A stretch of DNA of 64,000 nt from an uncultured Gammaproteobacteria bacterium (GTDB taxonomy: Bacteria; Patescibacteriota; Microgenomatia; UBA10105; UBA927), in NCBI GenBank assembly GCA_964349125.1, contig CAYGFH010000003.1, positions 17,501 to 81,500 of the forward strand, in the 5' to 3' direction. Of this stretch, positions 3,001 to 54,701 are shown piece by piece. The translations under genes were made by a program, and so were the position numbers. Below the pieces are notes generated by a model. That model saw nothing but the letters and a program-made list of their open reading frames with translations. It was not told where the DNA came from and searched no databases. Numbering within the stretch: the stretch's first letter is position 1; every line of letters begins with the position of its first letter.

Positions 3001-3995
3001 ACGGCATGATTCGTGTGTACAAATATGACGATGTGAACGGAAATGGCCAAAAGGATGAAGGCGAAGAGTATTTGAGCGGTTGGGAAATGAATCTTTCTGA
3101 TGGCGAGTCCCAAACAACACAAACGACCGGAGAAGATGGCTTTACCGACTTTGAAGACCTTGTGCCGGGAGCCTACGTGCTGAGCGAAACGCTTGAGCAG
3201 GGTTGGAACCAGACCGGTATTTCCTGCCAATCAAACCAGACACGTATTGATCGGGATTCACAGCTGACACTTGGGGTAACGCGCGTTCACGCTCAGGAGG
3301 AGACGAATAGTGAAAACATCGATCTGGATGCAAGTGAAACCGTGACCTGTGAGGTGGGAAATCAATACATCCAGCCTAAATTGTTAATCGAAAAAACAAA
3401 TAATGCTGCCGGAGATAAAGCACCGGGATCTGATGTCCAGTTTACGCTTACGATCACAGCTGTGGATAATGATGTACTTGGCGTCTCGGTCAGAGACTTG
3501 CCATCCAAAGGGTTCGCGTATCGGTCAGGCAGCTGGTCTGCAAAGAAAAACGGTGTACCGTTTGCCGTCAGTGAGCCGACGTATGCATCTCCAGGAACAT
3601 GGACATTGGGGGATATGAACGTTAATGACGTTATTGAACTCATATACACTGCAGATATTGCGACAGACCAGCAATCAGGAACGTACCGCGATCTGGCATG
3701 GGCAGCTGGCACAAATGTACTCTCAGATGAAGTTGTGGCAAATGATGAAACAGGCGTATTTGTAGGTACAGATGTGACGGTAGTACGGGGAAATGATGCA
3801 TCCACTGGAGTCAATGTTGTTACAGAAAAAACAGGAGAGGTATTGGGAGCATCGACAGAGCTTCCATCCACGGGAGCTTCACAATTCTGGCTTGGAGTAT
3901 CCGGTATTGGCTTGATGCTTGGTATTGCCAGTATGCTCTACGGGGCATCACTGAATAAACCGGCAAAGAAAGGAAAGAGGAAACTCCATGCGTAA
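1..3995 (+). CDS. Giant repetitive cell-surface adhesin, 5' end cut by the window edge. It has about 11 tandem Ig-like (Cna B / SpaA / prealbumin-like) domains plus a DUF11-like domain, and ends in an LPSTG sortase sorting signal.
   Basis: The frame is open from nt 3, and the upstream residues NARDTGTL match the internal repeat motif CTFTNARDTGTIQVVKD, so the gene continues 5' of the window. A recurring unit (CTFTN..G.I.V.K...G.Y...E...GW) appears about 11 times. The C-terminus is ELPSTGASQF followed by a hydrophobic helix and a KKGKRK tail, which is the tripartite cell wall sorting signal. Confidence 0.7.
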   Translation, partial: NARDTGTLRVLKNVDLNGDGDYTDQGETGATNWEWQANTSTFTGMTGDTAITVPTGTYALTETMKSNFHFVSLQCTGGTLTDNSVAVTTGATVVCTFTNARDTGTIQVVKDVDPNDSGATGWNFSISGATANTANDLQDEESSSVFTSMTGAYTITESAHTGTNADHYDTTYSCVDGDLVVATGSGMTTSEFALQTGKNIVCTFTNTLKRGTIIVEKQMVGGTGSAQFTGDVAGTIVTNGGEIQTSNILPGTYTSVESAMTGWDLTALSCDDGRSTTPSTTDIQTRTATFKVDPGETIVCTFTNTKRGQLTVYKFTDPQTDTTTAFDITATGSGTITAPAGRTITGGSSQVYEVTPGSYWISESVEAGWAQTGNTCVNVSVAAGASESCTITNTKLGNVTVVKYHDENADGVMNGAEATLNDWEMVLNGTMNQWTGAQNEGQVTFSDLMPGNYTLSESLQDGWYQSNIACGQETGTDADNSHTVVLGAGENITCYVGNYQSGSIVVTKRVVNPDGGEVVDTSTEFPFAVGGSSDTPTLTDDESHTFVVAPGLHTVTETTNENYDFVGCSEGIAGDTFAGTTVTVTSGQTVNVDCTNKQKKATITVVKDVVKYDGSTVDDTHEFEVTLDGIAKPFAEGSNAVYSVNPGTYSGIESADPAYTLVTNDSPATVSSNGTATITIVNRQNPGTISGYKFKADGVTAIANWLVELWSCASDFTGCVLGDSTTTNENGFYSFTNLVTGFYKVMEELVNTYTPVGVTEYDQQISPGTVSENNNFANFKNIDITACKVKDADADLETTQDQTTVSSWDMTLIVDGVAQETSYPTGKDGCYTWENLGPDHTYGVSEESRSGWAALGDTSVSFGEPEDGVNESHTFYNTELGSIHGMKWHDINGNGQQDEIGTVLSGWMINLYKDNGESYELVDTMDTDSGVDHYGWYWFEDLYPGKYRVCEENQSGWSQTYPTLNNGCHDVTLPDGNSGGFPEVQNATFGATYNFGNQEHGMIRVYKYDDVNGNGQKDEGEEYLSGWEMNLSDGESQTTQTTGEDGFTDFEDLVPGAYVLSETLEQGWNQTGISCQSNQTRIDRDSQLTLGVTRVHAQEETNSENIDLDASETVTCEVGNQYIQPKLLIEKTNNAAGDKAPGSDVQFTLTITAVDNDVLGVSVRDLPSKGFAYRSGSWSAKKNGVPFAVSEPTYASPGTWTLGDMNVNDVIELIYTADIATDQQSGTYRDLAWAAGTNVLSDEVVANDETGVFVGTDVTVVRGNDASTGVNVVTEKTGEVLGASTELPSTGASQFWLGVSGIGLMLGIASMLYGASLNKPAKKGKRKLHA

Positions 3996-4977
3996 TTTTG
4001 TCTCATCACTATCTGCAATTTTCGTTTCACTCGTGCTTTCCGGCACAGTGTATGCGGCCGTACCTAATCTGAGTATCAGGTTGCAGCAACCGAAAACACC
4101 AACGAATATTTCGGACCTCAAAATCACAGTGGTCACATTGGACCGGTTAGACAGAAATGTAACAGTAAAGTGCTATAAAAAGGGCCCATCAGACGGTTCG
4201 TTCAGCCAATTTGGATCCGATATGGTGGTTATTCCCGGTGGAAACAGTGTTACCTGTGATACAAATTCGGGCATCATGAATACGAACGGTACATACGAGT
4301 TTCAGGCCACTGCACAGGCAGATGCCGATCTGGAAACCAGCCCCATTGTCTCCGTGTCTTACAACACGAGCGGCCCGGGGACACCAGTTAATTACGGCAA
4401 AGAGCGGATGAATGTGTGTGACTATAAAATCAAATTCAGAACCGCTGATGATTCTGGGAAAACAGTAAAAGTAGAAGTATACCGCTCTGAGAACACATCA
4501 TTTGACCTGAATAACGGCTCCCGGGTGGACACCATTGTGATCGGTTCGAGCACCGATGGGCAATCCGTCACCACACCACCGCAGTGCGATAAAGACTACT
4601 ACTTTGCGGTGCGCGCTTTTGATACAAATGGAAACGGATCGGGCGCGGTGGGAGATAGTGTCATAAAAACAACCACTACGACCACAACCACCTCTACAAC
4701 AACGGGCGCAGCGTCAGGTGCTTCCGGAACATCAGGTGGCGCTTTGGCTTCCGGCAGTTCAGGAAACGTGCTCGGACGCCAAACTGAAGTGGATGCTGAC
4801 ACAACAGGCAGTGAAGGCGAAGTAAAAGGAGATGCGACTCCAAGCGCAACGCCAACGGCTGAAGTTGCCGAATCTGAAGAAAAGCCGCCATACGCAAAAA
4901 CTATAGCAATTGTTGCAGGCATTATCCTATTTGGTATATTGGCATTTCTGTTTCGAAAAAAGCCAACCGTACAGTAA
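3988..4977 (+). CDS. Secreted surface protein with two Fn3/Ig-like domains, a Thr-rich linker, and a C-terminal YAKT motif followed by a TM helix and basic tail. It is a putative sortase substrate.
   Basis: The N-terminal signal peptide ends in VYA-AVP. There is a TTTTTTTSTTTGAASGASG linker. The C-terminus is PPYAKTIAIVAGIILFGILAFLF-RKKPTVQ. The start overlaps the upstream stop by 8 nt. Confidence 0.5.
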   Translation: MRNFVSSLSAIFVSLVLSGTVYAAVPNLSIRLQQPKTPTNISDLKITVVTLDRLDRNVTVKCYKKGPSDGSFSQFGSDMVVIPGGNSVTCDTNSGIMNTNGTYEFQATAQADADLETSPIVSVSYNTSGPGTPVNYGKERMNVCDYKIKFRTADDSGKTVKVEVYRSENTSFDLNNGSRVDTIVIGSSTDGQSVTTPPQCDKDYYFAVRAFDTNGNGSGAVGDSVIKTTTTTTTTSTTTGAASGASGTSGGALASGSSGNVLGRQTEVDADTTGSEGEVKGDATPSATPTAEVAESEEKPPYAKTIAIVAGIILFGILAFLFRKKPTVQ

Positions 4978-4982
4978 AAACT

Positions 4983-5597
4983 GTGAAGGTTTCTTCTATG
5001 CGCACTGCCCGTATGTTTATAGCTGTCGGTTTTGTAGTATCTGCACTCTCTCTTGGTATCTTGCTACTCACGTTTTGGCCTGTCTTGAAGGTTGAATTCG
5101 GATATGTAGCCAAGCAGGCCGGGATCCAGTTATCGATAACCAAACCACCCAAAGACATTGTCCCTATAGATCCTGATTTTGGGATCGTTATTCCAAAGCT
5201 TGGCGCCAATGCCAAAATTATCCCAGACGTGAACCCTTATTCCGAATCAGCCTATCAGAGGGCACTCTCAAAGGGCGTAGCACATGCCAGAGGGACCGTC
5301 TATCCTGGAGATGTGGGAAATGTATTTTTATTTGCGCATTCATCGGTTGATTTTTATGAGGCGCTCCGGTTTAATTCTGTGTTTTATCTTATCTCAAAGC
5401 TAGAGAAAGGAGATGAAGTAATTCTTTATCATAACTCCCATAAATTTGTTTACATAGTAACCGAAAAACGTATAGTTTCATCGACCGCAGTCGAGTATTT
5501 ATCGCGCGAAACTAAAAACAAGCTGCTTACTATGATGACGTGCTGGCCACCCGGTACAACCCTGAAACGATTGGTTGTACAGGCTGAGCTTCGATAG
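4983..5597 (+). CDS. Sortase family transpeptidase
   Basis: An N-terminal TM anchor is present. The catalytic His sits in VFLFAHSS. The TLxTC-type active-site motif LLTMMTCWPPG is followed by a conserved Arg (KRLVVQ). Confidence 0.75.
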   Translation: MKVSSMRTARMFIAVGFVVSALSLGILLLTFWPVLKVEFGYVAKQAGIQLSITKPPKDIVPIDPDFGIVIPKLGANAKIIPDVNPYSESAYQRALSKGVAHARGTVYPGDVGNVFLFAHSSVDFYEALRFNSVFYLISKLEKGDEVILYHNSHKFVYIVTEKRIVSSTAVEYLSRETKNKLLTMMTCWPPGTTLKRLVVQAELR

Positions 5598-5715
5598 TGC
5601 CTCAAAACTGCATATTCTTATATTTGTGCTTAGAGTATGTGTTCACTGTATACTGCCTTCTCGTGTATATAGATATATATCTTTTATTCTATATATTGAT
5701 TCCAATTTATATATA

Positions 5716-5744
5716 TTGACATATTTGTATACACATGTTATTAT
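5716..5744 (+). promoter_or_regulatory. Sigma70-like promoter, TTGACA-17nt-TATTAT, inside an extremely AT-rich intergenic island (5598-5787) upstream of the PT-rich surface protein gene.
   Basis: TTGACA at 5716-5721, a 17 nt spacer, and TATTAT at 5739-5744. A GAGGAGG Shine-Dalgarno sits at about 5768-5774, ahead of the ATG at 5788. Confidence 0.4.
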
Positions 5745-5787
5745 AGGCTTAATATAAACCCCTGCCGAGGAGGTTTGTTTTTTTTAT

Positions 5788-6456
5788 ATGAACAAAACTA
5801 ATCTGAAAATCTCAGCCTTGATTGGAGCTATCTTGGCGGTCGCGACTATGGTTTCGACAAACACACCAGCTCAAGTTGCTGCAGCAGTTGATAAAATTCT
5901 TTGGTGTCATTGTGAACCAAATGGTAATTGTCAAACGCTTGAACTTCCCTCCGCAGCATTGCAGAATGCCGGACATATGGATGCAAGTGGGAATCCACTT
6001 CATGCAGGTGATTCAGCTGGCTCATGCCCGGATATTTCTCCAACTGTGACACCTACCGTGACACCAAGCGTGACGCCTTCTGCTACACCAAGTGTCACAC
6101 CATCACCGACACCGGTCGATGAATGTGATAGTGAAAAGGAATGCGAACCAACACCTACTGTGACTCCAACAGTGACGCCGGTTCCTACAACTCCTCCGAA
6201 TACCGGAGGACCGGGAGATGGTAAATCAGATGGAAGATCTGACGGCCGATCAAGTTGCCCAGAATGTACACAGGCGCCAATTGGTGGCGGTCAAGTACTC
6301 GGAGCATCAACAGAGGGTCAGGTCTTGGGTGCATCAACTGACTATGCCAAAACAGGTGGCACAGTGAATATGCTCATGAACCTACTCGGTTCAGTCGGAG
6401 CATTTTCAACTGCATCAGGTATCGCAATGATTCTAAAGAAAAAAAATCAAATCTAA
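5788..6456 (+). CDS. Secreted Cys-rich surface protein with a Pro/Thr-rich stalk and a C-terminal YAKTGG motif followed by a TM helix and KKK tail. It is a putative sortase substrate.
   Basis: A signal peptide is present. The stalk contains (TPTVTPSVTPSATPSVTPSPTP) repeats. The C-terminus is DYAKTGGTVNMLMNLLGSVGAFSTASGIAMIL-KKKNQI. Confidence 0.5.
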   Translation: MNKTNLKISALIGAILAVATMVSTNTPAQVAAAVDKILWCHCEPNGNCQTLELPSAALQNAGHMDASGNPLHAGDSAGSCPDISPTVTPTVTPSVTPSATPSVTPSPTPVDECDSEKECEPTPTVTPTVTPVPTTPPNTGGPGDGKSDGRSDGRSSCPECTQAPIGGGQVLGASTEGQVLGASTDYAKTGGTVNMLMNLLGSVGAFSTASGIAMILKKKNQI

Positions 6457-6480
6457 ATTGCTTACATAAGTACACAAAAA

Positions 6481-6505
6481 GGAGTCTGGAAACAGACTCC
6501 TTTTT
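6481..6505 (+). terminator. Rho-independent terminator (GGAGTCTG-GAAA-CAGACTCC followed by TTTTT)
   Basis: A perfect 8 bp GC-containing stem with a GAAA tetraloop is followed by a T-run, directly after the stop of the 5788-6456 gene. Confidence 0.55.
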
Positions 6506-6538
6506 GGTAGTATAAGGCTGTATACTAAATATATAGTT

Positions 6539-7105
6539 ATGAAAAAAAAGCGCGGAGATATAAACCGATCTCATTCTTTACTTTTTCCTTACACACTCCT
6601 TGCCCTGGGAATCTGCTTACTGACACTGTGGGGTACACATGTGTATTTTCGAACACGATCATTGACGTTAAACGAAGCCATATTGGCTACCCTTGAGCAA
6701 GCACCACAACATGCTGAGCTTCCTGTTCGCATCCATATTCCATCAATTACCACAGTCGATATAGTGAGAGCAGGGAAGATCAACGGTGAATGGACAATCT
6801 CAGAACATGCTGCAAATTTTGTGATGCAATCAGCAACGCCCGGAACACCCGGGAACTCCATTATTTATGGTCATAATACATACAATATTTTTGCAAACCT
6901 GATTCGCACCAAACGAGGTGATCGGGTCACCGTATACATGTCAAACGGCACTATACTCACCTACACTGTCGTTGACATACAGGAGGTTACACCGGACAGG
7001 ACAGACCTGTTAAAATCCACGGTCACTGAGGTACTTACCATATATACCTGCTCAGGGTGGTTGGATAGTAAACGATTCGTCCTGCGTGCCGTTCCTACGT
7101 TGTAA
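6539..7105 (+). CDS. Sortase family transpeptidase (second paralog)
   Basis: An N-terminal TM segment is present. The His is in IIYGHNTY. The active-site motif is VLTIYTCSGW, with a downstream Arg (VLRAVP). Confidence 0.75.
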   Translation: MKKKRGDINRSHSLLFPYTLLALGICLLTLWGTHVYFRTRSLTLNEAILATLEQAPQHAELPVRIHIPSITTVDIVRAGKINGEWTISEHAANFVMQSATPGTPGNSIIYGHNTYNIFANLIRTKRGDRVTVYMSNGTILTYTVVDIQEVTPDRTDLLKSTVTEVLTIYTCSGWLDSKRFVLRAVPTL

Positions 7106-7195
7106 TACTGAGAGAGGTCCGACATCACCAGGACCCGGTAACTTCGACACATATTTTCTGGAATGAAGAGGCTCTTGTGAGGTATACTACGATGT

Positions 7196-7711
7196 ATGGA
7201 GTACGGCGTTTTTATACTTGTCCAGATTTGTTTTGCGATATACCTCGTGTACTACATAATTGCATTTCTCTCCGGCGCACCGTACGTACCATCCACAAAT
7301 CCGACATCTGACTCCATGATCCGACTTGCGCGCCTTTCTTCCCGAAAACGCGCATATGATCTTGGTTCAGGTGACGGCAAGCTGTTACCGCGCATCGCAG
7401 CTACAGGAGCTCACGCAATTGGTATAGAAATAAACCCGCTGTTGGTGCTGTTTAGCACTATACGGTCCTGGTTGTCTCCCTACAGAAACTCCATCTCAGT
7501 CAGATGGGGCAGTTTTTGGGCGACAACATTTGCCGATGCGGATGTTGTATTTGTATATCTGTTACCGCTTCGTATGGAAAAGTTGGAAAAAAAACTGGCA
7601 AAAGAATGCAAAAAAGGCACAATCGTGGTTTCCAACAGTTTTTTGTTTCCACATTGGAAAATCCTGCGTCAAGACACTGTGAACCACGTATATGTGTATA
7701 AAATAGCATGA
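7196..7711 (+). CDS. Small membrane-anchored class I SAM-dependent methyltransferase
   Basis: An N-terminal hydrophobic helix is followed by the SAM-binding motif I, YDLGSGDGKLL, and then AHAIGIEINP. Confidence 0.45.
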   Translation: MEYGVFILVQICFAIYLVYYIIAFLSGAPYVPSTNPTSDSMIRLARLSSRKRAYDLGSGDGKLLPRIAATGAHAIGIEINPLLVLFSTIRSWLSPYRNSISVRWGSFWATTFADADVVFVYLLPLRMEKLEKKLAKECKKGTIVVSNSFLFPHWKILRQDTVNHVYVYKIA

Positions 7712-8647: not shown

Positions 8648-10402
8648 ATGTCAGACACAGACAAGCTAAATAACCTACGTCATTCAGCCGCACATCTACT
8701 TGCGGCTGCTGTCATGGAGATATGGCCGCACACGAAACGCACCATAGGGCCCGCTATTGAACACGGATTTTACTACGACTTCGATTTCGGTGATGTCAAA
8801 GTCTCAGAGGACGATTTCCCAAAGATTGAAGCAAAAATGAAAGAGCTTGTTAAGTCATGGAAATCATTCGATAGACGAGAGGTAACCAAAGATGAAGCGC
8901 TGTCACTATACTCGTATAATCAGTACAAACAGGAACTCATTGAGGAATTTGCATCAGAGGGACAGTCCCTTACTGTCTATACCTCTGGCACGTATGAGGA
9001 TTTATGCAGGGGAGGACATTGCCCGCATCCGAATAATGACCTCAAGCATTTCAAACTCCTTTCTATCGCGGGCGCGTATTGGAGAGGCAGTGAAAAAAAT
9101 AAAATGCTGACGCGCATATACGGCACCTGTTTTCCAAAAGCCGTGGAATTAGAAGAGCATCTGAAACTACTCGAAGAGGCTAAAAAACGGGATCACAGAA
9201 AGCTTGGGGCTGACCTGGGTCTGTTTGTGTTTTCCGATCTGGTAGGACGGGGACTTCCTCTCTGGACTGCAAAAGGTGCGACGGTGCGACGCGAACTGGA
9301 ACGGTTTGTCGTCGATGAAGAGGTCAAACGCGGGTATTCACACGTATACACCCCAGATATAGCCAACCTAGAGCTCTACAAGACCTCTGGACACTATCCG
9401 TACTATAAAGACACCATGTATGCCCCTATCACCATTGAGGATGAAGACTATATGCTGCGTCCCATGACGTGTCCGCATCATTTTGAGCTCTATAAATCTA
9501 AGCCTCACAGTTACCGCGAGTTGCCGATACGGTTTGCTGAACTGGCCAAGCTGTACCGGTTTGAAAAATCCGGTGAGCTTACCGGCTTAATGCGTGTCAG
9601 AAGCTTTTGTCTGGCTGATGCCCATATTATTGCGCAGAAAAGTCAGGCTACGGCCGAAATCAACGGAGTGCTGGATCTTATAGATTATCTGGCGCAATCA
9701 TTTGGCCTAAAACCGACAGTGAACTACCGGTTCCGACTTTCTCTTGGTGACAGATCTGATGAGAAGAAATACTTCAAAGACGACGCTTCGTGGGATCAGG
9801 CAGAAGAGGTCCTCCGAGGAGTGCTCAAAGAACGGAAAGCGGATTTCTATGAAGCGCCGAATGAAGCTGCATTTTATGGCCCAAAGATTGATGTGCAAAT
9901 GAAAAACATCGTCGGAAAAGAAGAAACCGCGTTCACAGTGCAGTATGATTTTGTCATGCCAAAACGCTTTGCTCTGGAATATACGACAGAAAGCGGGACT
10001 AAAGAAGAACCCATCGTCATCCACAGATCGTCCATAGGCGCCATAGAGCGAACCATCGCATTTCTCATTGAATTCTATGGGGGAGCGTTCCCACTCTGGC
10101 TTGCACCGACCCAAGCGGTCATCATCCCGATTGCCGAGCGCCATGCCGAGGCTGCGAAATTAGCCTCAGACGCCCTCTTGGCACGGGGAATTCGGGTGGA
10201 AGTGGATGGCAGGAGCGAATCCATGCAAAGCAAGATTCGCGATAATACTTTACAAAAAGTGCCATACTTAGGTATAATAGGGGATCGGGAAGCTGGGGCA
10301 GGCGAATTGTCTGTCAGAACCAGAAGTGGTGAAGATCTCAAAACGATGAGTATTGAGGCCTTTATCACCCGATTGACAAGCGAGATTGAGCATAAACTTT
10401 AA
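8648..10402 (+). CDS. thrS: Threonyl-tRNA synthetase (N-terminal TGS domain absent)
   Basis: The N-terminus is HSAAHLLAAAVMEIWP...GPAIEHGFYYDF, the start of the N2 editing domain. Class II motifs, RDHRKLG, and the anticodon-binding domain are present. It is 584 aa against about 640 typical. Confidence 0.9.
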   Translation: MSDTDKLNNLRHSAAHLLAAAVMEIWPHTKRTIGPAIEHGFYYDFDFGDVKVSEDDFPKIEAKMKELVKSWKSFDRREVTKDEALSLYSYNQYKQELIEEFASEGQSLTVYTSGTYEDLCRGGHCPHPNNDLKHFKLLSIAGAYWRGSEKNKMLTRIYGTCFPKAVELEEHLKLLEEAKKRDHRKLGADLGLFVFSDLVGRGLPLWTAKGATVRRELERFVVDEEVKRGYSHVYTPDIANLELYKTSGHYPYYKDTMYAPITIEDEDYMLRPMTCPHHFELYKSKPHSYRELPIRFAELAKLYRFEKSGELTGLMRVRSFCLADAHIIAQKSQATAEINGVLDLIDYLAQSFGLKPTVNYRFRLSLGDRSDEKKYFKDDASWDQAEEVLRGVLKERKADFYEAPNEAAFYGPKIDVQMKNIVGKEETAFTVQYDFVMPKRFALEYTTESGTKEEPIVIHRSSIGAIERTIAFLIEFYGGAFPLWLAPTQAVIIPIAERHAEAAKLASDALLARGIRVEVDGRSESMQSKIRDNTLQKVPYLGIIGDREAGAGELSVRTRSGEDLKTMSIEAFITRLTSEIEHKL

Positions 10403-10910
10403 ACATTATCGGATCAATTATCAGATCACCAGCGCGGAACTCCGCGTGCTTGACGAAGACGGCAAGCAAATTGGTGTAATGAGCAAACTGGAAGCTCTCC
10501 AGAAAGCGAAAGAATTGAATTTTGATGTGGTTGAGGTAAATTCAAAAGCCAGTCCACCTGTCGCAAAGCTGATTGATTTTAAAAAGTTTAAATATCAGGA
10601 AGCCAAAAAAGAACGGGATAGCAAAAAGAATCAGAAAAATGTGGGAGTCAAAGAAATACGACTCCGACCGTTTATCGGCCAACATGATTTTGATACCCGG
10701 GTTGCCAAGGCAAACGATTGGTTAGCCCATGGCGATCAGGTGAAAATAGTGGTGTTTTTCAAGGGAAGAGAGATTACGAGAAAAGAATTTGGGTTTGAAG
10801 TCATGAAAAAACTCATGGCGGCACTCGGGGCTGTGAAAATAGTCCGGGAGCCAAGAATTGAAGGAAAAACGCTGACGGCCATGGTAATAGCCGATAAGAA
10901 GAAAGAATGA
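10386..10910 (+). CDS. infC: Translation initiation factor IF-3
   Basis: INYQITSAELRVLDEDGKQIGVM aligns with the IF-3 N-terminus. The gene overlaps the thrS stop, and its start is non-ATG (TTG at 10386, or in-frame ATA/ATC at 10392/10413), consistent with the unusual start codons known for infC. Confidence 0.85.
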   Translation: MSINFKHYRINYQITSAELRVLDEDGKQIGVMSKLEALQKAKELNFDVVEVNSKASPPVAKLIDFKKFKYQEAKKERDSKKNQKNVGVKEIRLRPFIGQHDFDTRVAKANDWLAHGDQVKIVVFFKGREITRKEFGFEVMKKLMAALGAVKIVREPRIEGKTLTAMVIADKKKE

Positions 10911-53076: not shown

Positions 53077-53946
53077 ATGATTCTTGATGGAAAACTGATA
53101 GCAGAGAGGATTCTCGATTCAATTGCGCGCTCGGTCACATCGCTTAGGGACAAAGGAATCACTCCCACGCTCAGTGTCATTTTGGTGGGGGACGATCCCG
53201 GATCATTGTCATACATAAAACAGAAGCAAAAAACAGCAGATAAAGTCGGTATACGCGTCATTTTCGAACATTTTTCCGATACGATAGCGCCAGATATTTT
53301 GGCATCCGCGATCGCACACTACAATGCGGATGATGAGGTACATGGGCTTATCATCCAACGACCTGTTCCTACATATATCGGAGATACGGGTGATATCCTA
53401 CAAACCGTCATCCCCGCTAAGGATGTTGACGGATTTCATCCACAATCACCGTTCCAGGTTCCTGTGGCGAAAGCGGTACTCACGCTTCTGTCCAGCGCGC
53501 ATTCAACACTTCTATCACAAGGATTGGTGCATGGCGAATTTCTACCGTGGCTTCAGGCTCAGAATATCTCGGTAGTCGGTAGGGGAGAGACGGCCGGTAA
53601 ACCAATAGCTAATGTACTAATGACATACAAGTGCTCCCCAACTGTCATACATTCCCGCACAGAACATCCCCAACAGATTCTAAAACAGTCGGATATCATT
53701 ATTAGCTGCGTGGGAAAACGCGAGGTCGTCAAAAAATCGTATATATCAAACGGAGCGATACTCATATCTGTAGGAATTTGGCGTGATGCAGATGGAAAAC
53801 TGCACGGGGATTATGAATCTGACGATATCGAACAGGTTGTCGCGTTTTACACACCCACACCCGGTGGCGTAGGCCCGGTAAATGTTGCATGCCTTATGCA
53901 AAATGTTCTGGAAGCCTGTATACTACAAAAAGATCTACATAAATAA
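53077..53946 (+). CDS. folD: Bifunctional 5,10-methylene-tetrahydrofolate dehydrogenase / cyclohydrolase
   Basis: MILDGKLIAERI...VVGRGETAGKPIANVLM...PGGVGPVNVACLMQN are FolD signatures. Confidence 0.9.
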   Translation: MILDGKLIAERILDSIARSVTSLRDKGITPTLSVILVGDDPGSLSYIKQKQKTADKVGIRVIFEHFSDTIAPDILASAIAHYNADDEVHGLIIQRPVPTYIGDTGDILQTVIPAKDVDGFHPQSPFQVPVAKAVLTLLSSAHSTLLSQGLVHGEFLPWLQAQNISVVGRGETAGKPIANVLMTYKCSPTVIHSRTEHPQQILKQSDIIISCVGKREVVKKSYISNGAILISVGIWRDADGKLHGDYESDDIEQVVAFYTPTPGGVGPVNVACLMQNVLEACILQKDLHK

Positions 53947-53963
53947 AGAAGGGGGAAACATCT

Positions 53964-54701
53964 ATGAAAGATATAAGCGGTGCAGTTATAGTTTTTTTCA
54001 TTGCGCTTTTTGCATTTATTAAACTCGCGGGACCAATTCCGCTTTCTATTTCGAGCGTTGTTACCAATAAAACAGATTCCTTTACCGTGACAGGCGAAGG
54101 AAAGGTATCACTCTCGCCGGATATCGCAAAGATCCAGGCTGGAGTCACAGCTCAAAGCTCATCGGTAAAACAGGCGCAGCAGGATATAAATAAAAAAATA
54201 AACGCAATATCAGACGCAATTAAAAAATTGGGCGTCGATACAAAAGATATTCAGACAGCACAATATTCGGTGCACCCGCAGTATGATTACCGTGACGGTA
54301 GACAGAAAATAACTGGATATGAAGCCGCCACCACATTATCCATAAAAGTGCGAGATATGGAAAAGGCAAATGATGTCATTGATGTGGCTACGGCAAACGG
54401 CGCAAATCAGATCGGTGGAATATCCTTCGATGTTGATGATCGTACAAAGGTGGAGAACGAAGCCCGTGCGAAAGCCGTGGAAGATGCCAAGAAGAAAGCC
54501 GAAATGGCAGCAAAAACAGCAGGATTCACGCTTGGGAGAGTTATTAACTATAACGAAAACACCGGTGGTGATATGAGACCCGTTCCTATGATGTACGCCA
54601 AGACTGAAATGGCAGGAGCAGCAGACCAAGTTGCATCAACAATAGAACCGGGAAGTCAGGATATCATGGTAACTGTGTCTCTCAGTTACGAAATACGATA
54701 A
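53964..54701 (+). CDS. SIMPL-domain (DUF541) protein, second paralog
   Basis: An N-terminal TM/signal is present, and ...TAQYSVHPQYDYRDGRQKITGYEA... parallels the paralog at 52211-52972. Confidence 0.65.
   Translation: MKDISGAVIVFFIALFAFIKLAGPIPLSISSVVTNKTDSFTVTGEGKVSLSPDIAKIQAGVTAQSSSVKQAQQDINKKINAISDAIKKLGVDTKDIQTAQYSVHPQYDYRDGRQKITGYEAATTLSIKVRDMEKANDVIDVATANGANQIGGISFDVDDRTKVENEARAKAVEDAKKKAEMAAKTAGFTLGRVINYNENTGGDMRPVPMMYAKTEMAGAADQVASTIEPGSQDIMVTVSLSYEIR

Follow-up and report, generated by a model that had tools for sequence, protein, structure and literature searches.

A recurrent gene pair of a putative alanine-type sorting signal and a compact sortase beside an LPSTG adhesin locus in Patescibacteria

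Introduction

Dedicated cassettes of a sortase and its substrate include class B SrtB with its NPQTN substrates and the class GN 'marine' sortase (TIGR03784) with a target of its own. Class E sortases, as in Streptomyces coelicolor (SrtE1/SrtE2) and Corynebacterium, recognise LAXTG; a Tyr in the beta3/beta4 loop (Tyr229 of SrtE1) has been proposed to contact the Ala of this signal, 21 residues are inserted between beta6 and beta7 when compared with class A, and SrtE1 cleaves LPETG as well as LAETG in vitro (PMC5148588). Sortases are present in more than half of the genomes of the Candidate Phyla Radiation (CPR) and are near-ubiquitous in Microgenomates (PMC6744442). In a literature search that mostly excluded subscription journals, we found no description of sorting signals or sortase classes in Patescibacteria/CPR and nothing relevant on FAXTG, YAXTG, MAXTG, FAGTG, YAATG or YAKTG signals; the system that a recent preprint reports for a CPR pilus is chaperone-usher-like and not sortase-based (10.64898/2026.03.03.709456). 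Here, we analyze a stretch of 64 kilobases (kb) of contig CAYGFH010000003.1 (hereafter, the window), the source genome of which is that of a Microgenomates/Gottesmanbacteria-like member of the Patescibacteria, and in which five consecutive genes on the + strand encode a giant adhesin, a membrane protein (P2), a sortase (Srt1), a small secreted protein (P4) and a second sortase (Srt2).

A sequence-only reading of the window had singled out this locus, and its factual part is borne out: the adhesin ends in LPSTG, there are two sortase genes, and in two secreted proteins YAKT is followed by a hydrophobic segment and basic C-terminal residues. The same reading went on to propose that YAKT is a new pentapeptide core shared by two substrates of a dedicated sortase and that the locus resembles a pilus island. 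Based on the analyses described below, we think it probable that the locus instead comprises two sortase systems, i.e. an adhesin(LPSTG)-P2-Srt1 system and a P4-Srt2 system with an [F/L/Y/M]-A-x-T-G signal, and that the YAKT of P2 arose by chance.

Results

The sorting signal of P4

P4 is built of a signal peptide, a small Cys/His-rich domain, a Pro/Thr linker, a GDGxSDGRSDGRSSCPECT...GQVLGAST module and a sorting signal, and its C-terminus reads VLGASTD-YAKTG, 26 uncharged residues and KKKNQI. No Pfam or NCBIfam model matches the tail or the remainder of the protein. The layout of a tripartite sorting signal (a pentapeptide with a final T-G, a short spacer, ~20 residues without charge and a C-terminal K/R) together with an N-terminal signal peptide is found in P4 and in the adhesin and not in P2. 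In an alignment of 32 diverged P4 homologs with a mean column identity of 22% (alignment A1), only five columns are invariant, i.e. M1, A187, T189, G190 and G204, three of which are the A, T and G of the signal, while the VLGAxT directly upstream of the signal and N198 within the hydrophobic segment are nearly invariant. The Y and K of YAKTG vary in the P4 family.

Searched exhaustively with HMMER, the 77 residues at the C-terminus of P4 yielded 87 cluster representatives at E<=1e-3. Among 114 anchored tails collected from the P4 homologs and from this search, position 1 of the signal is F in 43, L in 28, Y in 21 and M in 15 (107 tails for these four residues), position 2 is A in 105, S in four and P in three, and position 3 is free. 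LAATG is the second commonest variant in the P4 family, and one subfamily carries VLG-LSTTSG. YAKTG thus belongs to a signal that occurs across the lineage, [F/L/Y/M]-[A, with G or S less frequent]-x-T-G, and that is defined by a small residue other than proline at position 2, a trait shared with the LAXTG of class E. YAKTG is, therefore, not the isolated new pentapeptide that had been proposed; it falls into an [F/L/Y/M]-A-x-T-G continuum that includes LAATG and fits class E LAXTG. The VLGAST element precedes both the LPSTG of the adhesin and the YAKTG of P4, and more than five residues may make up the sorting signal.

We made three side observations on the P4 family. The GDGxSDGRSDGRSSCPECT...GQVLGAST module (residues ~145-185; nucleotides 6220-6342), which holds a CxxC pair, comes close to the signal in its conservation, in P4 and its homologs, and the hydrophobic segment has nearly invariant polar or small residues at N198, G204 and G211. 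Many family members (P0006, P0010, P0012, P0019, P0023, P0039, P0042, P0044, P0055 and others) have the Cys/His-rich domain and the SDGRS module without the anchor and end in a short conserved C-terminus of the form ...CGWK, ...VGWK or ...CGNK. Finally, signal variants adjoin sortases of the Srt2 clade at a number of loci identified in our surveys (designated L followed by a number), i.e. LSTTSG in L010 (9353-10225), LGATG with Gly at position 2 in L070/L073/L079, L081, L084, L088 and L091-L093, and LAAAG with Ala for Thr in L041, L044, L048, L096 and L100-L106; the last of these would lose the Thr, the residue that normally forms the thioester-linked end.

Pairing of non-proline tails with Srt2-type genes

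Pairs of a non-proline tail and an Srt2-clade sortase recur across Patescibacteria. In a scan of one genome per species that was seeded on the substrate motifs SDG[RG]SSCPE and G[QD]VLGA[ST]TD and not on the pentapeptide, we obtained 21 loci, one of which (L021) was a spurious 14-residue match; loci with informative record titles came from Gottesmanbacteria, Levyibacteriota, Paceibacterota or the 'Patescibacteria group'. In 20 of the 20 genuine loci, an Srt2-type gene lies directly downstream on the same strand, at a distance of at most ~90 base pairs (bp) or overlapping, and the upstream gene ends in [F/Y/L]-A-x-T-G (LSTTSG in L010). All four Srt2 homologs that were looked up by exact sequence are preceded by a gene for a secreted protein ending in MAETG, LATTG, FAKTG or LASTG followed by a transmembrane (TM) segment and a basic tail, and none of these four proteins has a passenger domain related to P4. 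A metagenome scan, seeded on sortase motifs alone and with 80 of 434 relatives kept, gave 59 distinct evaluable loci, ~50 of which have an upstream and mostly overlapping gene with an [LFYM]-[A/G]-x-[T/A]-G tail, and Pro was present at position 2 in none of the 59. Neither in the substrate scan nor in the four look-ups nor in the metagenome scan did a tail adjoining an Srt2-clade gene have Pro at position 2. The co-occurrence of YAKT-type tails with the second sortase clade had been suggested as a check in related genomes; for non-proline tails, such co-occurrence was found in 20/20, 4/4 and ~50/59 loci. As for the proposed dedicated sortase-substrate pair, the part concerning P4 (YAKTG) and its downstream Srt2 stands, while P2 as a second substrate does not (see below). 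Gene adjacency points to Srt2 as the dedicated enzyme for the YAKTG-type signal.

Some loci deviate in arrangement or annotation. L005, L008 and L017 contain tandem substrate-sortase pairs, e.g. LAFTG and a sortase followed by LAATG and a sortase, with the sortases from different Srt2 subclades. In L003, the Srt2-type gene after the YAATG protein (10316-10588) is shortened to 90 residues and encodes the membrane helix only while the adjoining P2-Srt1 pair is intact, and this copy is likely a decaying cassette. The records of L001, L002, L005, L006, L008-L012, L017, L018 and L020 are labelled 'uncultured Gammaproteobacteria bacterium'; because their gene content is of the type of the Patescibacteria loci, these labels are probably wrong.

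P2 is a membrane protein with an unconserved YAKT

P2, the start of which overlaps the stop of the adhesin gene by 8 nucleotides, begins with a signal peptide, which is followed by two beta-sandwich domains of the FN3/Ig-like type and a disordered linker rich in Thr, Ser and Gly. A C-terminal TM helix and a basic tail complete the protein, which ends in PPYAKT-IAIVAGIILFGILAFLF-RKKPTVQ. In the AlphaFold2 model (mean predicted local distance difference test (pLDDT) score 79; above 90 in the domains), the predicted TM helix comprises residues 302-323 and starts at the Y of YAKT. In Foldseek, P2 is best matched by FN3 domains paired in tandem and by RbmA, a matrix protein of Vibrio. PamR, described in the CPR pilus preprint of 2026 (10.64898/2026.03.03.709456) as RbmA-like with two FnIII domains and a C-terminal helix, is alike in architecture, as compared by verbal description only.

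The P2 search gave 187 homologs at E<=1e-3, the best 120 of which, i.e. P2 and 119 others, were compared. YAKT was found in none of these 119 listed homologs, and they have no conserved motif before the TM segment: the homolog with 83% identity has YGKT, and others have SKKT, SIKT, KKV or unrelated residues. The YAKT of P2 is also not followed by Gly, and no polar spacer separates it from the helix. Because the tetrapeptide is unconserved, has neither Gly nor spacer and lies inside the predicted TM helix, we conclude that P2 is a plain type-I membrane-anchored protein and not a sortase substrate. Thus, what had been taken for two independent occurrences of the same motif is one strongly conserved signal in P4 and one tetrapeptide that is absent from the 119 listed homologs of P2. 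A degenerate sorting signal in P2 was also considered and rejected on conservation and topology. A third YAKT occurs in an unrelated open reading frame (ORF) at 53943-54701 (...MMYAKTEMAG...), far from any membrane segment, documenting that the tetrapeptide does arise by chance in the window.

The LPSTG system and its separability from the P4-Srt2 cassette

The adhesin ends in VLGASTE-LPSTG, 27 uncharged residues and KPAKKGKRKLHA. Its ORF is cut by the 5' edge of the window, and the gene call on another contig of the same organism (L029) is 2409 residues long; its repeats are SpaA/SdrD_B prealbumin-like in Pfam searches. The VLGA[ST]T[ED]-LPSTG tail also ends the adhesins of L012, L022, L023 and L028. 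Srt1, for which the gene caller starts at the ATG at 4998 (199 residues), belongs to a clade with the signatures RGVAHA[RK]GT...F[AS]HSS and MTCWPPGT..KRL. Orthologs of Srt1 (216-250 bits) come after adhesin(LPSTG)-P2 in L012, L022 and L023 and after P2 alone in L003, and in L028 a 199-residue sortase with the MTCWPPGT..KRL motif comes after adhesin(LPSTG)-P2. Altogether, Srt1-type sortases adjoin LPSTG adhesins in five of five cases (the window, L012, L022, L023 and L028). A Fisher test on signal type by sortase type (28 vs 0 against 0 vs 5) gave p = 4e-6, a value that takes no account of genome relatedness and is only indicative. From this gene adjacency, we infer that Srt1 is the enzyme for the LPSTG adhesin. 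P2 is the conserved third partner located between the LPSTG adhesin and the Srt1-type sortase; outside the window, its gene is found at 10616-11602 in L003, 17401-18423 in L012, 10001-10948 in L022, 10001-10972 in L023 and 7318-8313 in L028.

L022 and L023 share synteny with the window in the order trigger factor, DUF5660, adhesin, P2, Srt1, a homolog of the window gene at 7196-7711, and thrS onward. In both, P4-Srt2 is missing and Srt1 lies directly before the homolog of the 7196-7711 gene. In L028, the closest relative (83% identity in P2), a cassette is present at the same spot on the opposite strand, and in its substrate a tail module with 82% identity is joined to an N-terminal domain of another kind, an arrangement that suggests cassette mobility and passenger-domain swapping. 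The corresponding segment of L028 (8931-11326, minus strand; 5598-7195 in the window) carries an extra gene of 267 codons. The synteny without the cassette in L022 and L023 and the inversion in L028 support that the locus consists of a conserved adhesin-P2-Srt1 unit and an inserted two-gene cassette. In the region around the cassette (5400-7400), we detected only short and probably chance repeats and no clear insertion scars. At many cassette loci, no gene of the Srt1 type lies within 10 kb.

Srt2 and the sortase classes

Both enzymes match Pfam Sortase (PF04203, peptidase C60; cut-off 26.6 bits) with 84.1 bits for Srt1 and 69.7 bits for Srt2, and they share 26% identity over 97 residues. The catalytic His, Cys (TxxTC-type motif) and Arg are present in both, and the sortases collected here fall into an Srt1 and an Srt2 clade by their signatures. 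Srt2 is compact, with an N-terminal TM helix and a catalytic domain of ~125 residues; H112, C171 and R179 are invariant across 20 sequences of the Srt2 clade, which has the signatures IIY[GA]HN and YTC[ST]G[FWL][LF]D[SQE]KR. The AlphaFold2 model of Srt2 (pLDDT 86) has the eight-stranded sortase fold in the form of a minimal barrel behind the N-terminal helix, and the stretch from the TM helix to strand 1 contains no lid. In Srt1, IDPDFG stands immediately before the first strand of the catalytic domain, as seen in the sequence only, the lid motif of class C being DP(F/W/Y). Both sortases stop at most ~8 residues after the strand with the catalytic Arg and have no C-terminal membrane anchor. 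A comparison of the beta6/beta7 loops of the two sortases had also been suggested; it covers Srt2, in the model of which beta6 spans residues 139-150, beta7 spans residues 164-171 and the loop between them has ~13 residues. Looked at by sequence comparison for a counterpart of Tyr229 of SrtE1, members of the Srt2 clade have F/Y/H/W at one position in the beta3 region.

Neither Srt1 nor Srt2 passes the threshold of any curated NCBIfam sortase class model. The best model for Srt1 is that of class C (NF033745; 57 bits, cut-off 160), on which Srt2 scores 32.3 bits, and the best model for Srt2 is that of class F (NF033748; 40 bits, cut-off 166), on which Srt1 scores 15.8 bits. On the class E model (NF033747; cut-off 160), Srt2 scores 28.2 bits and Srt1 44.1 bits, and on the class GN model TIGR03784 (cut-off 158) Srt2 scores 29 bits. 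The 20 members of the Srt2 clade all behave as Srt2 does, and for all of them class E is the weakest class model, with a best E-value of 1.7e-8. Searched by sequence against the PDB, both sortases gave weak, class-mixed matches. With the Srt2 model, Foldseek gave 110 matches in the PDB (E<=0.001), the 50 listed ones being sortases without exception; because structures of classes C, A, D and E have near-equal scores, no class is assignable to Srt2 from structure. By these searches, the Srt2 clade appears as an unclassified clade of compact sortases.

Other features of the locus

The features of the locus are listed in Table 1. Downstream of Srt2 lie two small genes followed by thrS, infC, rpmI, rplT, pheS and pheT, and in the 64-kb window we found no further sortase and no further sorting-signal-like tail beyond those of the five-gene locus. 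The promoter-like site in the 190-bp gap before P4 has 11 of 12 matches and a TG extension and would fit independent transcription of the P4-Srt2 cassette; it is a consensus match only, and the total count of promoter-like sites across the region equals the shuffle expectation. The inverted repeat between P4 and Srt2 is a candidate attenuating hairpin that may set the ratio of substrate to enzyme. In relatives, by comparison, the substrate and sortase genes mostly overlap or nearly touch.

Table 1 Features of the five-gene locus, in window coordinates.
Feature	Position	Strand	Basis or remarks
Giant adhesin, C-terminal 1320 residues	33..3995	+	Pfam SpaA_2, SdrD_B, SpaA, SpaA_4, SpaA_3
LPSTG sorting motif of adhesin	3861..3875	+	VLGASTE before; 27 uncharged residues and basic tail after
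P2, 329 residues, membrane-anchored accessory protein	3988..4977	+	187 homologs, AlphaFold2 model, Foldseek, synteny
YAKT of P2, Y302-T305	4891..4902	+	First turn of predicted TM helix
Srt1 sortase	4983..5597	+	Pfam Sortase 84 bits; H119/C187/R196
Promoter-like site TTGACA-17-TATTAT	5716..5744	+	Consensus match only
P4, 222 residues	5788..6456	+	203 homologs at E<=1e-3; alignment A1
YAKTG sorting motif of P4, Y186-G190	6343..6357	+	A187, T189, G190 invariant in 32 sequences
Perfect 14-bp inverted repeat, 4-nucleotide loop	6475..6506	+	CAAAAAGGAGTCTG gaaa CAGACTCCTTTTTG; between P4 stop and Srt2 start
Srt2 sortase, 188 residues	6539..7105	+	Pfam Sortase 70 bits; H112/C171/R179

Discussion

Based on the conservation of the signals and on gene adjacency, we suggest the following working model. 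System A consists of the giant SpaA-repeat adhesin with its LPSTG signal, the membrane protein P2 and Srt1 as a conserved three-gene unit upstream of thrS-infC-rpmI-rplT-pheST, and System B is the two-gene cassette of P4 and Srt2 inserted after Srt1. P4 would be exported via its signal peptide and retained in the membrane via its C-terminal hydrophobic segment and KKK tail; Srt2, anchored by its N-terminal helix, would cut P4 between T189 and G190 of YAKTG, and the cut P4 would pass to the cell wall.

Several points weigh against this model. Among the 59 metagenome loci, six have no TM-tailed gene upstream, and three have TM tails that our pattern leaves unclassified. The loci are related, some of them near-duplicates, so that the counts overstate independence. 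The hydrophobic segment of P4 is weakly hydrophobic and unusually conserved (N198, G204 and G211), and in this it departs from a generic stop-transfer anchor. Because SrtE1 cleaves both LPETG and LAETG in vitro, cross-processing by Srt1 is possible. Finally, the chance of an identical tetrapeptide beside both TM segments is small (~1e-4 by a rough estimate), and the case for coincidence in P2 rests on missing conservation, not on probability.

We considered four other explanations of the locus. That P2 and P4 are both substrates of a sortase pair reading a new YAKT-centred pentapeptide is suggested by the fact that, in two adjacent genes, an identical YAKT precedes a hydrophobic stretch and a basic tail, and the sole close relative with a cassette beside P2 has YGKT in its P2; yet this explanation has to contend with a P2 motif that none of the 119 listed homologs shares and that sits without Gly or spacer within the predicted TM helix, with P2-Srt1 pairs in which P2 has no such motif, and with a P4 family that fixes only A, T and G while Y and K vary, and we regard it as the least probable of the four. 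Hardly more credible is that the P4 tail serves as a permanent membrane anchor, with A-x-T-G as a helix cap, a glycosylation site or the site of another protease and with the sortase adjacency unrelated. The conservation of the hydrophobic segment at N198, G204 and G211 does suggest roles beyond transient retention, but the tail is tripartite in the manner of a sorting signal, its signal is placed like LPSTG after the same VLGAST element, and a sortase adjoins the tail in ~75 of 84 evaluable loci.

The likeness to a sortase-assembled pilus island, in which the adhesin would be the tip, P2 and/or P4 the shaft or base, and one class C-like sortase the polymerase, did not hold up on closer analysis, and we consider such an island very unlikely. 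It would be in line with the SpaA-type domains of the adhesin, with class C as the best (weak) NCBIfam model of Srt1, with class C enzymes among the top Foldseek matches of Srt2, and with a Lys near the mature N-terminus of a P4 subfamily (DKI.WCH), in principle a possible nucleophile. However, sorting signals are present only in the adhesin and P4; P2, which has none, has an FN3-like fold and not a CnaA/CnaB fold; the passenger domain of P4 is small, Cys-rich and interchangeable among cassettes, unlike a shaft pilin; the class C scores of 57 (Srt1) and 32 (Srt2) bits compare with a cut-off of 160; both sortases end right after the last catalytic strand without a C-terminal anchor; and the adhesin-P2-Srt1 and P4-Srt2 units are separable. 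At least two pilin subunits, each with a signal and a CnaA/CnaB fold that has a pilin-motif Lys, would be expected, and P2 and P4 do not provide them, with the adhesin not having been searched for a pilin-motif Lys. An arrangement in which a single housekeeping sortase (Srt1 or one encoded elsewhere) anchors both LPSTG and YAKTG proteins, and Srt2 serves in release/shedding or uses another acceptor, is unlikely in our estimate. Sortases that take Ala at position 2 can take Pro too, as reported for SrtE1 (PMC5148588), and the VLGAST element lies upstream of both signals. Against this stand the tight and reciprocal pairing of non-proline tails with Srt2-clade genes, often in overlapping frames, and the many cassette loci without an Srt1-type gene within 10 kb. 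Going beyond the two-system model, the Srt2 clade might represent a distinct, unnamed sortase class of the Patescibacteria that is specific for [F/L/Y/M]-[A/G/S]-x-T-G, that reads VLGAST together with the pentapeptide and a polar-studded membrane segment, and that forms a portable two-gene display cassette in which passengers are swapped; we put forward this extension tentatively, its chances being in our view slightly below even.

The locus indicates that a single lineage operates two sortase systems in parallel, a canonical one in which LPSTG serves a giant adhesin and one of the alanine type that has a compact enzyme to itself. If this is confirmed, signals of the non-proline type would reach beyond Actinobacteria to a structurally different enzyme, a simple rule would be available for predicting surface-displayed proteins of uncultured, host-attached bacteria, and small sortases of possibly orthogonal specificity would be candidates for protein engineering. 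If, in addition, the clade is a distinct class, this would imply modular change of surface proteins in episymbiotic bacteria and ligation enzymes orthogonal to LPXTG sortases. The finding extends a well-understood mechanism incrementally and does not introduce a new one.

Compared with known systems, P4-Srt2 shares with class E the Ala for Pro at position 2, the conserved T-G bond, LAATG as a variant in the P4 family and small surface proteins as substrates. It differs from class E in that Srt2 is far below the class E cut-off (28 vs 160 bits) and class E is the weakest model of the clade, in that the beta6/beta7 loop has ~13 residues in the Srt2 model whereas SrtE1 has a 21-residue insertion, in that F/Y/M are as frequent as L at position 1 of the signal and G or S also occur at position 2, and in that Srt2 is encoded one-to-one with its substrate in Patescibacteria rather than Actinobacteria. 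Class F provides the best class model of Srt2, and both are compact, but the score is 40 bits against a cut-off of 166 (NF033748). The locus is reminiscent of class C pilus islands in that a large SpaA-repeat adhesin is encoded beside a sortase and small secreted proteins; here, however, a second substrate of pilin type is missing, P2 is not folded like a pilin, the class C scores are far under the threshold, and the gene sets are separable. As in the class B and class GN cassettes, a specialised sortase lies beside a single substrate with a non-canonical signal and next to a separate LPXTG system, whereas the motif and the enzyme clade differ, and in P4-Srt2 passengers are swapped freely on a tail module that remains linked to the sortase. 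We conclude that, by the tests run, P4-Srt2 is a member of none of these classes and resembles class E in its non-proline signal and classes B and GN as a pair of neighbouring genes.

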